From: Patescibacteria group bacterium
Lineage (GTDB): Bacteria; Patescibacteriota; UBA1384; XYA2-FULL-43-10
Assembly (NCBI GenBank): GCA_041674405.1
Contig: JBAYVT010000005.1
Span: forward strand, 77,047 to 141,046
Direction of reading: 5' to 3'
Length of the DNA: 64,000 bases
A program made the translations under genes and the position numbers. A model generated the notes under the pieces. It worked only from the letters and a program-made list of their open reading frames with translations, had not been told where the DNA came from and searched no databases. Positions within the stretch are counted from its first letter, which is position 1; every line of letters begins with the position of its first letter. Positions 20,750-62,644 of this stretch are shown here, one piece after another.

Positions 20750-21277
20750 TTACGGCGCGTAGCTGGGGGGAGTGAGATGGCCAGCAATGGTCGTCCCGTT
20801 GTTCGTAGTGACGATGTCACCCTCCGCGGCGAAGTTGGCGGCGAGGCACGCCGCCGCGCCGTCTACCGAGATGTGGTTGCCGTCCATGGCGACCACCTCC
20901 ATCCACCAGGAGCCCTCCTCGTACTGCATCAGAAGATAGGGCTGGGTGCCCTGGCCCAGGTCCAGACTCCGAAGAGCCAGAGACAGGATCTCCTGGCTAG
21001 GCCGGATAGGGACCGACCCGACCTCGACATCGGCAGTGTTGTAGACCTTGATCTGGCCGTTGCCGGTCCCGTCGCGGGACATGGTCAAGTACGTGATGCC
21101 ATCGCCGCTGTCGAGGCGAGCGATGTTGCCCAAGCCGTCTGTGGCCCACTTCACACCCGCCGTCGGGAAGGCCGGGTCCACGCTTCCGCCTCCGCCACCA
21201 CCACAACCAGTCGAGATGAGGATCGCCACCAACATGGCGACCAGTCCGACCAACAACATCCATTTGCGCATGTTCAT
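20750..21277 (-). CDS. High-GC orphan lipoprotein-like protein (start ambiguous: Met at 21304, 21277 or 21271)
   Basis: Signal peptide MRKWMLLVGLVAMLVAILISTGCGGGGGG followed by a G/T/D-rich domain. GC is far above the flanks. The antisense 247-aa ORF is Arg-rich and looks spurious. Confidence 0.5.
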   Translation of the reverse strand: MNMRKWMLLVGLVAMLVAILISTGCGGGGGGSVDPAFPTAGVKWATDGLGNIARLDSGDGITYLTMSRDGTGNGQIKVYNTADVEVGSVPIRPSQEILSLALRSLDLGQGTQPYLLMQYEEGSWWMEVVAMDGNHISVDGAAACLAANFAAEGDIVTTNNGTTIAGHLTPPSYAP

Positions 21278-21540
21278 CACCTGTTCCAGGAGTTCGTACA
21301 CCATGTGGCGGCATACGTATTACAGCGCCATCAAACTAGCATATATTCAGCAATTTGTCAATAATAGATAATTATTTTCTGCCGTTATGCTACCGGCCAC
21401 AAAAAATTCTTCAGCCAAGCCAATCAAAAAATTTCCAACCATCTGGCTGGAAATTTTTTGTCAGACTTGCATACCTTTGTATATCCGAAACACAATGGAT
21501 AAGCATTGTGAAGTTGTTTTTAAAGCTACTTTATCCTAAT

Positions 21541-22474: not shown

Positions 22475-23149
22475 CTAGCGAAGGCTGAGGTAGCCTTGCT
22501 TCAGTTGCTCGTGAGAGATGGTGATGGTGGCGTACAGCACCCGGTTCTCGTCGATCAGGCTTCCGGGATTCTCGAAGTTCCAGGACGGCAGCCAGAGCAA
22601 GTTGTCCACGTAGTACTTGAAGCGAACCACAGGGGGGCCTTGCTCGCTGGTCAGGACCTTCACCCTCTCCATCGGAAGAGAGCTAACGAAGGTTGGCACA
22701 TCTCCCCCGCTTTGGTTTTGGGGAAGCGACCAGCAGAAGACATAGCTGACTCCTGGCCGAGACTTTCCCTCGACGCTGCCCTCGACGTAGCCTCCGAGGA
22801 AATTGCCTCCCCCGCTTAGGCTTCCACTGAGGTCAGACTTCTGGCCTTTGCTCACCAGCGGGTTGAAGACCAGTGGATGGGGCCCGAGCAGATGGTATCT
22901 CTCCAACTGCCCAATGTTCCACTTCACCCATCCAGTATCTCTGGCAGACTTCTCTCTGGCCCGCTTGATGGCAGAGTCATAGAGTTCGAAGTTACCTATC
23001 CGTGGGTTAAAGCTTCGTTCCCAGAAGTAGTCGGGCGTGTCGAGCCTGACTTTCAGCCAAGACTTGTCCGCGGGAGTCAGCCCCTTGGAGCAGCCTACAA
23101 CTGACACACCTACCAACAGAACCAACAACACGACAGCGATCTTTCGCAT
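22475..23149 (-). CDS. High-GC orphan lipoprotein
   Basis: 224 aa. MRKIAVVLLVLLVGVSVVGCSKG is a signal peptide plus lipobox (VVGC). SD AGGAAGG upstream. A GC-rich hairpin plus T-tract follows at 22411-22440. Confidence 0.55.
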   Translation of the reverse strand: MRKIAVVLLVLLVGVSVVGCSKGLTPADKSWLKVRLDTPDYFWERSFNPRIGNFELYDSAIKRAREKSARDTGWVKWNIGQLERYHLLGPHPLVFNPLVSKGQKSDLSGSLSGGGNFLGGYVEGSVEGKSRPGVSYVFCWSLPQNQSGGDVPTFVSSLPMERVKVLTSEQGPPVVRFKYYVDNLLWLPSWNFENPGSLIDENRVLYATITISHEQLKQGYLSLR

Positions 23150-54341: not shown

Positions 54342-54493
54342 TTTAGGTCCTTTTGCTATTTCTAGATTCAGAATATCATTTTATTGCCAAATTCACAATC
54401 TATAGCTATTTACCTTGACTATTTGCCGGTTTTATGATATCGTGCTTACGCACCCATAGGGTGACTACTGAATTGCCAAGGAGGCAAACCGCT

Positions 54494-55378
54494 ATGCCAG
54501 TTAAAACGTCGCACCTCAGAACCCCGTACGTCAGGCAGTTTCTCCAAGCGTTCGACATGGACCTCGGGTTACTAGATGACCTCGAGGCACTCGTCGAAGC
54601 CTGCTCGAGCCGCAACAAGCGCTTCGAGAGGGGCATGGACAAGGTCCGCTTCGAGTTCGAGCGGGACCAGTCCAAGTGGAATCAGTCCCAGTTGGATGCT
54701 ATCTTCACGCTCTCCGAGCGTTGGAGAATGCGCCATGGGGAGACTCCCTTCAAGGAAGGGTCTTCCTACGACTTGATCGTTACTATGGGCGGAGCCAGAC
54801 TCTCTCCGTGGCAGCGCGGTGCCTATGCCGCCTTGGCAATGTCCGAGGGTCGTGTGAAGGCTAGTACCTTGGTCATCGGCGGATCCAAACGGCACCTGCC
54901 GATGGCAGAGCTTCCGTTCATCACCGACTACGTCGATGTTGAGCGGCTGGTGTCCGAACGCAACCACCAGACCTTCTTGGTCGGCGGCGAAGAGAAATCG
55001 TGCATCACTGAGCATGACCTCTGCCTGGCCGCAGAAGCCAAGCTCGTGAAGGCTCATCCCGATCTCCACATCGTCACGATCTGCGTAGACATGGAGAGGG
55101 CGGGCAACCACGATGTCATCGCTGAGGTCATGAACCACAAGGAGCTCTTCCACTCCGACCGCGCACTATCCGTGGCTGGTGTGTCCACTCAGCTCTACGC
55201 GACCGGCCTGGACGCTGACCTCTGGCTGGACGCCGACACGCATGACTGGCGATACTACTCCGCAATCGGCCACCCGGTCGACCCGATCTACTCCGACCGC
55301 CGCACTCCGACCGTGTACTTCAACGAAATTCAGACGACCATGTGCAAGAAGGCACTGGCCGAGCTCAAGGGCTACTAG
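54494..55378 (+). CDS. High-GC orphan DUF218/YdcF(SanA)-like protein
   Basis: Start preferred at MPVKTSHL, preceded by CCAAGGAGGCaaaccgctATG. The ...DLIVTMGGARLSPWQRGAYAALAMSEGRVKASTLVIGGS...EEKSCITEHDLC... pattern resembles the DUF218 core. GC is far above the flanks. Confidence 0.5.
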   Translation: MPVKTSHLRTPYVRQFLQAFDMDLGLLDDLEALVEACSSRNKRFERGMDKVRFEFERDQSKWNQSQLDAIFTLSERWRMRHGETPFKEGSSYDLIVTMGGARLSPWQRGAYAALAMSEGRVKASTLVIGGSKRHLPMAELPFITDYVDVERLVSERNHQTFLVGGEEKSCITEHDLCLAAEAKLVKAHPDLHIVTICVDMERAGNHDVIAEVMNHKELFHSDRALSVAGVSTQLYATGLDADLWLDADTHDWRYYSAIGHPVDPIYSDRRTPTVYFNEIQTTMCKKALAELKGY

Positions 55379-57036: not shown

Positions 57037-57786
57037 TTAGTTCTTAATTCTGGATGTTAAAACATTTTCCACTTGTTGTAGTTGTTCTGGTGTGTTTATG
57101 CCGAGAACTTCGGTTTCGTCGGCAATTTTTACCGCACTGATTTTTTTGCCCTGATCTTTAGCCATTTTTATGACATCCGTAAGGTAATATTCACCTTGCG
57201 TATTGTTGGTTTTAATATTTGCTAGATTTTTCCAAAGCCAGAGAGAGTCGAAAACATAAAAAGCCGGATTGCATTCTGTGGTTTTTAGCTGTTCTTCATC
57301 GCAATCTTTGTGTTCAATAATTGCATCAACGTTACCTTCAGTGTTTCGAATTATCCTGCCGTAGCCTGTCGGGTCAGAGTATTCCACGGTAAGCATTGCG
57401 ATCGTTGGTTTTTCATTTGTGTATAGATCGATGAGATTTTTGATCGTTTCGGGTTTGAATAATGGGGCATCGCCGCAACAAACTATGACCGCATCCGATT
57501 TGCCTTCCAGATTTACTCGCGCAGACATTGTCGCATGGCCAGTGCCGAGCTGTTCTTCCTGTACTGCATACTCAACCTGGTCTTTAAAATAATCGCGGAC
57601 AATTTCTTGTTTATATCCCACAACAAGAACAATTTTCTTAAGGCCAGCATCGCATAACGATTGAATCAAATAACTTACTACCGGTTTACCATTCGCCTTA
57701 AACATGACTTTTGGGATTTCTGATCCATTTTCGCTACCCATGCGTTTCCCCTTCCCTGCCGCGAGCACAACTGCTGCAATTTCCAT
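57037..57786 (-). CDS. Sugar-phosphate nucleotidyltransferase (GlmU N-terminal-like NTP transferase)
   Basis: 249 aa. AAVVLAAGKGKRM glycine-rich loop. There is no left-handed beta-helix domain. Confidence 0.65.
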   Translation of the reverse strand: MEIAAVVLAAGKGKRMGSENGSEIPKVMFKANGKPVVSYLIQSLCDAGLKKIVLVVGYKQEIVRDYFKDQVEYAVQEEQLGTGHATMSARVNLEGKSDAVIVCCGDAPLFKPETIKNLIDLYTNEKPTIAMLTVEYSDPTGYGRIIRNTEGNVDAIIEHKDCDEEQLKTTECNPAFYVFDSLWLWKNLANIKTNNTQGEYYLTDVIKMAKDQGKKISAVKIADETEVLGINTPEQLQQVENVLTSRIKN

Positions 57787-57814
57787 TTTGATTTCCTTTC
57801 AATTATTCATGCCC

Positions 57815-57823
57815 ATTATATCA
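57815..57823 (-). promoter_or_regulatory. Extended -10 element (TGATATAAT) for the nucleotidyltransferase gene
   Basis: Minus sense: GGGCCCaattcTGATATAATgggcatgaataattgaaaggaaatcaaaATG. It lies immediately downstream of the palindrome GGGCCCCGAC-tatt-GTCGGGGCCC (57829-57852). Confidence 0.4.
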
Positions 57824-57989
57824 GAATTGGGCCCCGACTATTGTCGGGGCCCTGTGCTCTCCTCCTCTCTCGGCGGAGGATCACCGAGCCAATACGCGAA
57901 TGGCGGCTCGGCCAGTGGGTCATCTTTGAGTATCTCGGCCCAGGTTGTCTTCTCTTCGTTTGTCATCGCTCTCATGATTTCGACACTCC

Positions 57990-58220
57990 TTAGCAAGACA
58001 GATGTTGCCAGCGGCCAGTGCCGTCAGCGTACGAACGCATGCACTTTCCATGGCCACAGCCGATTTCTCCGCATGCAACGCACCTTTTGAGGCTATTGCG
58101 CTCTCTGCCAGTTTTCTTGGACGGAGCATGTAAACCCGCGTCACAGTGGGGGCATTTTCCCCCGTTCGCGGTGATTCTCCAGCTGCGGTTCCTTCTGTTC
58201 TGACGCTTGCTTGTCGCCAT
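57990..58220 (-). CDS. High-GC orphan zinc-ribbon miniprotein
   Basis: 76 aa with CPHC-x18-CVAC and a further ...CGHGKC. SD AAGGAGGccaggATG. Alternative-frame ORFs are low-complexity and treated as spurious. Confidence 0.45.
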   Translation of the reverse strand: MATSKRQNRRNRSWRITANGGKCPHCDAGLHAPSKKTGRERNSLKRCVACGEIGCGHGKCMRSYADGTGRWQHLSC

Positions 58221-58284
58221 CCTGGCCTCCTTGGCTGTTTGGTTTCGAAAAGCTTAACCGGTTTAAGCCCTTCGAGCCAAAAAC

Positions 58285-58312
58285 AAAAAACCGCCCTAGT
58301 GGCGGCCTTTTG
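58285..58312 (-). terminator. Intrinsic terminator of the CYTH-domain gene
   Basis: Minus sense: AAAAGGCCGCC-acta-GGGCGGTTTTTTGTTTTT. The stem sequence is near-identical to the hairpin at 55396-55411. Confidence 0.6.
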
Positions 58313-58410
58313 AAAAATATTTTTAAATCAAATTAAATAAGCCGCCGAGTAGTCGGAATAAGTAGATTGACTTGAATTGCGCGGCATTTGATATTCATAT
58401 TGAGTTGATA

Positions 58411-58902
58411 TTACCCTTTATTCATATAGTTTGCAATATCGGCAAACTTCTTGCCGGCTAGCGATTGGTTGGTTGCCCAGTCCTCTTCGGTAACTTCTCT
58501 CCCAAACCATTTTGGTTTTTCAAACGACTTGGCAGTTTCTTCGTCTGTAGTCGACACCTCGATCAGTGCCAAACCGTCAAGATCGCCTTCAAACTCATCA
58601 ATCATTATCTCAAGGCTGGGATCATCTTTGTATGCATATCTTTTCTTTTTAATGGTTTTCGTCACCACTTTCCAGATTCGGTCAAACTCTTCCTTGTTGA
58701 TTTCAACTTCAAATTCTTCCCTGTATCGCTTATCGCCAGGGATCGCCATCAATTTTCTGGTGATAAAAAACTTGTCTCCAATTTTTCGGACACGTGTGGC
58801 ATCCTCAGCATTTGAAAGGTAGCCCTGCTCTATCTCTGATGATTTTAGTTTGCCAAGTTCCGGTAATTCCGTTGCCAAATAGGTCGATTCGATGTTAATC
58901 AT
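58411..58902 (-). CDS. CYTH-domain protein (triphosphate tunnel metalloenzyme-like)
   Basis: 163 aa. The N-terminal IESTYLATELPE resembles the ExExK motif of CYTH, and acidic residues alternate through the beta strands. Confidence 0.45.
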   Translation of the reverse strand: MINIESTYLATELPELGKLKSSEIEQGYLSNAEDATRVRKIGDKFFITRKLMAIPGDKRYREEFEVEINKEEFDRIWKVVTKTIKKKRYAYKDDPSLEIMIDEFEGDLDGLALIEVSTTDEETAKSFEKPKWFGREVTEEDWATNQSLAGKKFADIANYMNKG

Positions 58903-61782: not shown

Positions 61783-62127
61783 ATGGATTTAGAAAATCCC
61801 GGATACTGGAGAAAACTTATCAACCAAGGGATGATTCGATTTTTTCTTTTAAAAGTTCTCTACAAAGACAAAGAAAGTTACGGATATAAGCTAGTCAAAA
61901 GAATTGAAGAATTGTCCGAAGGGATTTGCCGACCGACTGAATCCACCATTTATCCCGCCCTTGATCAGCTTATGAAAGGTGGATATGTGACGATACAAGA
62001 AGTCTCCGCTGGGATGAGGACAAGAAAAGTATATTCTCTAAACGAGCAAGGCAGGAGCGCTTATCGCACTGCCGCCAAAGCATACGGAGAAATAATTCCC
62101 CTACTCCGCGAAGCAATAATGCTCTAA
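61783..62127 (+). CDS. padR: PadR-family transcriptional regulator
   Basis: 114 aa. Winged HTH with GYKLVKRIEELSEGICRPTESTIYPALDQLMKGGYV. Confidence 0.75.
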   Translation: MDLENPGYWRKLINQGMIRFFLLKVLYKDKESYGYKLVKRIEELSEGICRPTESTIYPALDQLMKGGYVTIQEVSAGMRTRKVYSLNEQGRSAYRTAAKAYGEIIPLLREAIML

Positions 62128-62170: not shown

Positions 62171-62214
62171 AAACGTAACAATTCTTCCGCGGTCGCGGAA
62201 GAATTGTTACGTTT
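62171..62214. repeat. Perfect 20-bp-arm palindrome (REP-like element, copy B); a degenerate copy lies at 28882-28925
   Basis: AAACGTAACAATTCTTCCGC-ggtc-GCGGAAGAATTGTTACGTTT. Copy A reads AAACGTAACAATTTTACCGCG-acc-GCGAATAAAGTGTTACAATTT. Confidence 0.6.
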
Positions 62215-62323: not shown

Positions 62324-62644
62324 TCACCCGAGAAGCTCGTTATGCCTCACCGGGTTGAAACTCATTACTTCCCATCCATGCTGGGCCTCTTCTAGGAGCA
62401 CGTTTGGGTCATGTTCAACTTCGGTGTACTCGTGCATGAGCATTCCGTCCTCCACTAGCGTGTATGCTTCATTGCCGCTACTGCCACCGTAGTTATACAC
62501 CCTGATCGTCGCAATCCAGGGATCGAGAAGCCCAACCTCCAGCATCCATAAGAATGGCGCACTACCCTCGAACCTGGCAAACCCATTCTGCTCGCGCTGC
62601 CTTTGCAGCTCAAGGAGGATCAACCGCTTTTCTTTTTCGGTCAT
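62324..62644 (-). CDS. Higher-GC orphan hypothetical protein
   Basis: 106 aa. SD GAGGTGA 6 nt from the ATG. A hairpin CAGTATA-gata-TATACTG lies in its upstream region. Confidence 0.45.
   Translation of the reverse strand: MTEKEKRLILLELQRQREQNGFARFEGSAPFLWMLEVGLLDPWIATIRVYNYGGSSGNEAYTLVEDGMLMHEYTEVEHDPNVLLEEAQHGWEVMSFNPVRHNELLG

Follow-up and report, generated by a model that had tools for sequence, protein, structure and literature searches.

Between the gene for a CYTH-like protein and the gene for a GlmU-N-like nucleotidyltransferase of a Patescibacteria group bacterium (GenBank contig JBAYVT010000005.1), there is a patch of GC-rich DNA in which an earlier note, made from the sequence alone, had seen a lone open reading frame (ORF) for a zinc-ribbon miniprotein bracketed by GC palindromes. 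What does this patch encode, how far does the transcription unit extend, and how would its expression be controlled? We address these questions for a stretch of 64,000 nucleotides (nt) (positions 77,047 to 141,046 of the contig; hereafter, the window) by comparing its locus with 15 related loci (designated L003, L004 and so on). The observation in the earlier note was largely right, and its interpretation is to be enlarged: with somewhat better than even confidence, we read the patch as an accessory operon of two miniprotein genes, encoded by the minus strand in a genome of Saccharibacteria/Patescibacteria-like type and gated by an attenuator whose leader would sense ribosomes. The regulation would be of a known type, leader-peptide attenuation, here apparently driving two orphan protein families whose functions we propose from features of their sequences.

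The first gene of the operon and its predicted zinc sites

The first gene, ORF1, encodes 76 amino acids (aa) and lies, as the earlier note had it, at 58220-57990 on the minus strand, with a Shine-Dalgarno (SD) sequence AAGGAGG at 58232-58226, 5 nt ahead of the ATG; two assemblies, independent of each other, include this gene call. When ORF1 was searched against 5.8 and 1.8 billion proteins, a single homolog was recovered (P0002, 74% identity); we judged the HMMER matches P0003 and P0004 unrelated, as these proteins are of low complexity and repetitive or have multiple CxxC motifs. Seven further homologs were identified, all at the same locus (L092, L004, L087, L094, L096, L097 and the divergent L088), most of the homologs being recovered by walking out from the neighboring nucleotidyltransferase gene. 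A first DNA pattern applied to metagenomes gave no match, and a looser one recovered one true locus, L087, along with chance matches in high-GC genomes (L085 and L086).

The three closest members of the family differ by 29-31 synonymous and 20-22 non-synonymous codon changes, and the differences are distributed over the three codon positions as 15/8/39, 12/13/40 and 14/11/39; the excess at the third position is kept in more distant pairs. By this pattern, ORF1 is a genuine protein-coding gene, and the frame and strand chosen in the earlier note hold. The note had also allowed for the region turning out to be non-coding; the codon-position pattern indicates that the patch is coding rather than a structured RNA. 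Searches for such an RNA with Rfam, at gathering and E-value thresholds, returned only tRNAs elsewhere and sub-threshold matches driven by the terminator, and ARAGORN detected no tmRNA.

All nine ORF1 homologs share C23, P24, C26, C47, C50, G54, C55, C60, M61, W71 and H73, and C76 is nearly invariant, being shifted by one residue in L088 only. The resulting pattern, C-x2-C-x20-C-x2-C-x4-C-x(2-4)-C-x(11-12)-H-x2-C, contains eight ligands (seven Cys and one His), sufficient to coordinate two zinc ions, and the ORF1 product very probably binds zinc at two predicted sites. The two CxxC pairs of the earlier note are thus present in all nine homologs but are only part of the conserved set, and their spacing is CPHC-x20-CVAC (C26 to C47) rather than x18. 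The first half of the ligand pattern resembles a zinc ribbon. Its two CxxC knuckles, 20 residues apart, recall the paired knuckles, separated by a loop or hairpin, of zinc-ribbon (C4) miniproteins and the small zinc-ribbon or tandem zinc-finger proteins (Pfam Zn_ribbon, PDB 1wjp). The second half, C-x(2-4)-C-x(11-12)-H-x2-C, is spaced like a classical C2HC finger.

Unlike members of the curated zinc-ribbon families, ORF1 falls below the threshold of every Pfam and NCBIfam model: the best Pfam scores are E = 0.089 for Zn_ribbon_3, 0.018 for IBR and 0.02 for the ANCHR B-box, and the sub-threshold matches (E = 0.02-0.1) are spread over many zinc-finger families and inconsistent between members. 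Searches of Pfam, PHROGs, NCBIfam and PADLOC gave no significant match for ORF1 or for the second gene of the operon (ORF2, see below), tblastn against phage genomes gave only matches with E >= 3, and sequence-profile searches of the PDB yielded nothing that we accept as homologous. The best PDB alignment of the nine-homolog ORF1 profile, to the tandem C2H2 fingers of 1wjp (E = 3e-4), runs ligand for ligand; it follows the ligand pattern only and is no evidence of homology. WhiB-like (Wbl) Fe-S proteins are marked by a C-Xn-C-X2-C-X5-C signature together with a G[VI]WGG turn. We rejected membership of ORF1 in this family, given an hhalign probability of 0.6% for the alignment with a WhiB1 sequence and the absence of a Pfam Whib match.

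The ORF1 protein is basic (isoelectric point, pI, of 10.2), with an N-terminal tail rich in Arg and Lys, and a pI of 9-10.2 is typical of eight of the nine homologs, the divergent L088 member having a pI of 7.5. Identity to the ORF1 of the window is 37-74%, compared to 61-82% for the flanking nucleotidyltransferase.

An acidic second gene and the 3' end of the operon

The lone ORF of the earlier note is, as far as can be judged from the comparison, the first gene of a two-gene operon. The GC-rich 3' part of the patch, to which the note had assigned only low-complexity alternative ORFs, contains a conserved second gene, ORF2 (57975-57838, minus strand), with an SD sequence of its own. ORF2 encodes an acidic (pI 4.4), proline-rich protein of 45 aa with the motif DPLxEPPxxYW; across the eight homologs, the pI is 4.1-4.6 and E-P-P-x-x-[YWF]-[WF] is invariant. 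The peptide is encoded after ORF1 in L083, L088, L092, L087, L094 and L097, and alone in L090. Between loci, only the same-frame translations of ORF2 align (score of 76 vs at most 38), and the substitutions favor the third codon position (9/4/13, 12/6/19 and 13/15/29). In L096, a different acidic ORF of 43 aa occupies the position of ORF2.

The SD sequence of ORF2, AAGGAG (57991-57986), overlaps the stop codon of ORF1, and start-stop overlaps between the two genes are found in L087 (GTGAGTAA) and L097 (ATGA); from this arrangement, ORF2 is predicted to be translationally coupled to ORF1. Taken together, the charge of the two proteins, the zinc ligands, the coupling and the variability of the locus hint that ORF1 may use its zinc module, together with the basic tail, to bind nucleic acid, and that ORF2 may be its acidic partner or antagonist. 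Because each gene can be found alone (L004 and L090), an obligate ORF1-ORF2 pair is unlikely.

In the called proteins of 318 and 303 aa at L083:2532-3488 and L088:2669-3580, respectively, the ORF2 frame stays open across the 3' hairpin, -10 element and SD sequence and joins that of the nucleotidyltransferase. An AlphaFold2 model of the 303-aa ORF2-nucleotidyltransferase fusion (P0008) contains a moderately confident helix at ORF2 residues 3-15 and a disordered linker, and is uninformative on docking.

The operon ends in a 3' hairpin at 57829-57852, a perfect palindrome with 10-bp arms that was correctly described in the earlier note (GGGCCCCGAC-tatt-GTCGGGGCCC; GGGCCCCGAC-AATA-GTCGGGGCCC on the minus strand). 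The hairpin overlaps the end of ORF2, whose TAG stop codon lies within the loop, and closes the unit just ahead of the nucleotidyltransferase promoter. By itself, the palindrome is unremarkable, as the window contains 45 short-range inverted repeats with a length of 10 nt or more; it gains significance because its position is kept in related genomes while its sequence is replaced. The stems at the same place are wholly different: GGACCCCCGA...TCGGGGGTCC in L083 and L088, GAGCCGCCCGA...TCGGGCGGCTC in L092, GGTCAG...CTGACC in L094 and L090, and CCCGTCCGCCG...CGGCGGACGGG in L087. The extended -10 element of the nucleotidyltransferase gene, TGATATAAT (57823-57815, minus strand), lies beside the palindrome, as the earlier note had proposed, 5 nt away from it and 28 nt ahead of the nucleotidyltransferase ATG (57786), and is conserved as TGTTATAAT in L083, L088, L091 and L092.

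Two competing helices in the leader

Ahead of the cassette, all loci contain a homologous leader of about 180 nt, including those in which the upstream gene codes for Fpg or a BP74_N protein or is a NUDIX remnant. In the window, a sigma-70-type promoter is predicted at 58408-58436 on the minus strand, with a -35 element TTGCAA (58436-58431), a 17-nt spacer and a -10 element TAATAT (58413-58408) that overlaps the stop codon of the CYTH-like gene. Equivalent promoters with 16-18-nt spacing, such as TGGACA-17-TATAAT and TTGACA-17-TATTAT, occupy the same place in 11 of the 12 leader modules identified; these promoters are predicted from the match to the consensus only. The predicted promoter is followed by an upstream ORF (uORF) of 21 codons plus TAA (58333-58398, minus strand; peptide MNIKCRAIQVNLLIPTTRRLI), with the ATG 9 nt past the -10 element and no SD sequence. 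Given this position, the mRNA would be leaderless or almost leaderless, and this would also apply to 11 of the 12 modules, in which the uORF starts 4-9 nt past a -10-like hexamer and lacks an SD sequence.

The last codons of the uORF contain the strand GGCGGCTT, also written GGCGGCUU (58339-58346, minus strand), which is complementary to the 5' arm of a downstream intrinsic terminator and its A-rich flank. This antiterminator strand has the general form GGCGG(Y)UU and is located 16-40 nt upstream of the terminator. The duplex has a predicted energy of -15.9 kcal/mol in the window (among the best 0.3% of windows in the locus) and of -12.7 to -19.3 kcal/mol (the best 0.2-1%) in all 12 modules. 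In an alignment of 11 loci, the antiterminator helix is 82.6% paired, compared to 32-56% when the partner strand is slid, with three covarying pairs, of which pair 16:61 occurs as GC in four loci, UA in four and AU in one; RNAalifold and several single-sequence minimum free energy folds also select this helix.

The terminator itself, CAAAAGGCCGCC-ACTAG-GGCGG followed by a U-tract (58279-58312, minus strand), was delineated by a terminator scan (58312-58284) and by pairing across the 11 loci, where its helix is 84.3% paired, compared to 39-55% when slid, with covariation at pair 63:79. An intrinsic terminator separates the uORF from the miniprotein genes in every one of the 12 modules. A terminator-like hairpin with a T-run is present where the earlier note had placed the terminator of the CYTH-like gene, but it does not simply belong to that gene, given that the leader recurs behind other upstream genes. 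The pairing statistics and covariation indicate that the leader consists of two mutually exclusive helices, a predicted terminator and a predicted antiterminator.

Between the terminator and the SD sequence of ORF1, which lies outside the leader hairpins, there is an additional 12-bp hairpin, CGAAGGGCTTAA-accgg-TTAAGCTTTTCG (58246-58274, minus strand). A stable hairpin is found at this position in 12 of 12 modules (z of -2.7 to -5.7 in 11 of them); its basal pairs covary, and its sequence is replaced in L088, L094, L090 and L096. The leaders of the window, L083 and L092 have an additional GCCGC segment by which the antiterminator strand can be sequestered. No match to Rfam 15 at the gathering score was detected in the window region, L003, L004, L005 or L083, and no copies of the leader were found elsewhere in the window or the loci. 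The architecture recurs in L090, where a second module of unrelated sequence (GGCCAGCA vs UGCUGGCC) precedes another zinc-ribbon miniprotein.

A possible ribosome-sensing attenuator

The position of the uORF suggests that the leader could be a ribosome-sensing transcription attenuator. The apparently leaderless 21-codon uORF ends on the antiterminator strand, such that a ribosome at its stop codon would mask this strand, the terminator would form and the operon would be off. If the ribosome lagged or stalled earlier, the strand would be free to pair, RNA polymerase would read through and the operon would be on. Under this scheme, ORF1 and ORF2 would be produced when translation of the leader falters, and the pair would be a dispensable, fast-evolving response module rather than a housekeeping function.

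The same two helices might, however, form a genuine switch that is not read by ribosomes at all. The 5' 50-80 nt would then be an aptamer or be bound by a protein (possibly ORF1 itself), or the terminated leader would act as a small RNA, the uORF being incidental in every case. We consider this alternative unlikely, although in 8 of the 12 modules the antiterminator core lies at a constant distance of 51-52 nt from the transcript start and the leader folds better than its shuffled versions (z of about -3.7). An ATG-started uORF of 16-32 codons is open in all 12 modules, with its stop codon falling between -4 and +17 nt relative to where the antiterminator core begins, and this includes the second, unrelated module of L090. 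Furthermore, the I-L-x-x-P codons of the uORF stay in one frame across indels, and the peptides of L090, L094 and L096 are conserved, with some synonymous changes. The 5' part of the leader, where an aptamer would be sought, shows no conserved structure common to all modules, and the Rfam searches described above returned no family for it.

The ribosome-sensing attenuator and the operon that it would control nevertheless have to be weighed against several observations. The promoters, the transcription start, termination and the translation of the uORF are all predictions. Substitutions in the uORF are without third-position bias (4/5/3 and 7/8/3), that is, there is no purifying selection at the amino acid level, and shuffled uORF interiors stay open 27-54% of the time; the uORF could therefore be incidental, the sensor being RNA structure or a bound factor, as in the alternative above. 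The uORFs contain no tandem run of regulatory codons, only a hydrophobic stretch followed by Pro being common to them. The 3' hairpin of the window has no U-tract. On the protein side, L004 has ORF1 without ORF2, L090 has ORF2 without ORF1, and ORF2 of L083 and L088 lacks a stop codon and reads into the nucleotidyltransferase frame. Of the homology and structure checks that the earlier note had suggested for the 76-aa peptide, the former produced the nine-member homolog set but no family match, and the AlphaFold2 model (two-sequence input) was unusable, with a mean predicted local distance difference test score of 46. In the searches that we ran, no family, structure or context gave a clue to the biochemical function of either protein.

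The predicted attenuator shares with the leader-peptide attenuators of the trp, his, phe and thr operons a short uORF followed by an intrinsic terminator, the 5' arm of which can pair upstream, as well as the overlap between the end of the uORF and the upstream strand, which would allow the position of the ribosome to choose the fold. Where the GCCGC segment is present (the window, L083 and L092), the leader can follow the classical 1:2 / 2:3 / 3:4 logic. Unlike the amino acid attenuators, the leader of the window encodes a peptide without a regulatory codon run, its uORF is apparently leaderless and without an SD sequence (starting 4-9 nt past the -10 element across modules), and the cargo consists of orphan miniproteins rather than biosynthetic enzymes. 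The Rfam Trp and Phe leader models score 17-19 bits on the leader of the window, compared to gathering scores of 41-55, and cover the terminator only.

A second point of comparison is provided by the leaderless polycysteine short ORFs of mycobacteria, which are reported to be first cistrons that act as ribosome-pausing sensors for the genes of the operon, with stalled ribosomes blocking structures that sequester the downstream ribosome-binding site, a form of translational control (Canestrari et al., bioRxiv 10.1101/834739). The feature that would be shared is a leaderless uORF as a ribosome sensor; the leaders analyzed here differ in that they have at most one Cys codon per uORF (0-1), that the competing structure is an intrinsic terminator, and that they come from a Patescibacteria lineage and control a different cargo.

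With regard to the broader context, a literature search on gene control in Candidate Phyla Radiation bacteria found nothing relevant. These bacteria have tiny genomes with few recognizable regulators. A terminator/antiterminator leader that is conserved among them and probably read by ribosomes on a leaderless uORF would give a tangible example of how they regulate genes. The two miniprotein families, being without known relatives, add to the unannotated small proteome. Even if no inferred step of the scheme holds, what is left is a correctly delimited two-gene operon that annotation pipelines call only in part.

Cassette exchange at a variable locus

The cassette is found at the same locus, between Fpg and the nucleotidyltransferase, in at least nine lineages, the nucleotidyltransferases of which are 61-82% identical, and is absent at L089, L091, L093, L095 and L005. 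Such presence and absence among close strains indicates that the locus is accessory and possibly linked to lifestyle. In L091 (80% nucleotidyltransferase identity; L091:600-705), the degenerate relic of a terminator, AAAAGCCGTCGATAGTGGGTTTTTGTTTTT, directly adjoins the TGTTATAAT promoter, which looks like a clean loss of the uORF, the hairpin and both miniprotein genes. At the cassette site of L093 (2830-2990), just upstream of the nucleotidyltransferase gene, a unit of about 50 nt (gtag[ga]cca[tc]gctt[ct]ag...) is present in three tandem copies.

The close genomes L003 and L004 share the leader and the downstream terminator but carry unrelated cargo (L003:2875-3222 and L004:2964-3176): an ORF1 homolog in L004, and in L003 a 115-aa ORF (MPECFVCQ...MWFHPSC) with a single C-x2-C...W-x-H-x2-C module. 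In L090 (1930-2810), two attenuator modules are arranged in tandem, the first driving an ORF2 homolog alone and the second driving a 71-aa CGNC-x35-CCWC miniprotein.

A tentative extension of the two-gene operon, which we regard as possible but would not rate as an even chance, is that the interval between fpg and the GlmU-like nucleotidyltransferase gene is a hotspot for interchangeable orphan miniprotein cassettes (the two-zinc ORF1 type, the acidic EPPxxYW type and other zinc ribbons), each under a leaderless-uORF terminator/antiterminator switch. If so, the leaders would represent a class of translation-status sensors new for the Candidate Phyla Radiation, and the miniproteins would form a fast-evolving response or conflict module. 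Their target could, for example, be the ribosome or the adjacent enzyme of cell-wall precursor synthesis, or they could take part in the interaction of the episymbiont with its host or phages.

The variability of the locus also brings to mind a conflict module, in which ORF1 and ORF2 would be toxin-antitoxin-like, anti-phage or host-interaction effectors of an episymbiont, instead of a regulator with its partner, and the locus a small cassette hotspot. Cargo is replaced between close relatives (L003 vs L004, L090 vs L094), ORF1 evolves fast compared to the nucleotidyltransferase, the basic and acidic proteins are encoded by an apparently coupled pair, and the tandem modules of L090 include another zinc-ribbon miniprotein, all of which would fit. 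Type II toxin-antitoxin cassettes, in particular, resemble the operon in combining two very small coupled or overlapping genes for proteins of opposite charge at a strain-variable locus. Unlike in those cassettes, however, no toxin or antitoxin domain is recognizable with PADLOC, Pfam, PHROGs or NCBIfam, either gene can occur singly, and the regulation, as far as visible, is by an attenuator rather than by operator autorepression. Considering, in addition, that phage genomes yielded no match, that the proteins have no signal peptide and that there is no mobile-element gene nearby, we find a conflict module quite improbable.

Base composition of the patch and other GC-rich islands

The patch is indeed a high-GC island, as described in the earlier note, with a GC content of 53.6% at 57751-58300, compared to 40.4% for the whole window. 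As the cassette is syntenic in nine or more diverged lineages, however, we doubt that it is an island in the sense of recently arrived foreign DNA. In its simplest form, the notion of a foreign island holds that an orphan gene arrived within high-GC DNA, that the two hairpins are the terminator of the CYTH-like gene and a plain downstream terminator, and that there is no dedicated regulation. The patchy distribution among relatives, the single homolog recovered from the large protein searches and the presence of three other high-GC orphan islands in the window are compatible with such an arrival, but the leader has retained a promoter of its own in loci with another upstream gene, and the antiterminator covaries. 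The GC content at third codon positions (GC3) of ORF1 and ORF2 is only moderately raised, 0.47-0.67 compared to 0.31-0.45 in neighboring genes, and this is the case in every lineage. Given that synonymous sites are saturated between lineages, the composition has been sustained and is not a trace of recent import. We therefore assign the foreign-DNA explanation a very low probability.

The excess of GC3 in both miniprotein genes and their homologs over the neighboring genes amounts to 0.15-0.25 in all lineages, with synonymous divergence saturated. The high GC3 of both genes suggests that codon choice, mRNA structure or mRNA stability is under selection.

The three other high-GC islands of the window are located at 20750-21304 (minus strand), 22475-23149 (minus) and 54434-55378 (plus), and each contains one orphan ORF, with GC3 of 0.82, 0.72 and 0.77, respectively, compared to about 0.35-0.45 in the neighboring genes. 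None of the three ORFs has a match in Pfam or PHROGs; the first two resemble lipoproteins. Unlike the patch analyzed here, these islands look like recent acquisitions from a high-GC donor. They are preceded by ordinary promoters and by no attenuator-like leaders, and no repeats common to the four islands were found.

Genomic neighborhood

The window belongs to a metagenome contig of 395 kb (ENA ERZ27247358) of a Patescibacteria/Saccharibacteria-like organism with about 40% GC. The genes surrounding the patch are all on the minus strand. In gene order, Fpg (60574-59687) comes first and is followed by an orphan ORF of 244 aa (59644-58910), the CYTH-like gene (58902-58411) directly upstream of the cassette, and, directly downstream of it, the GlmU-N-like nucleotidyltransferase gene (57786-57037), after which come the genes for an M15 dipeptidase and then RecO. 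The 244-aa ORF has no match in Pfam or PADLOC and is not found at the equivalent position in L083 and L088.

Finally, another patch with a GC content of about 54% contains an inverted repeat with perfect arms of 21 nt and a spacer of 2 nt (62171-62214). It is located between a convergent pair, a PadR-family gene (61783-62127, plus strand) and an ORF of 106 aa (62324-62644, minus strand), and is probably a bidirectional terminator.

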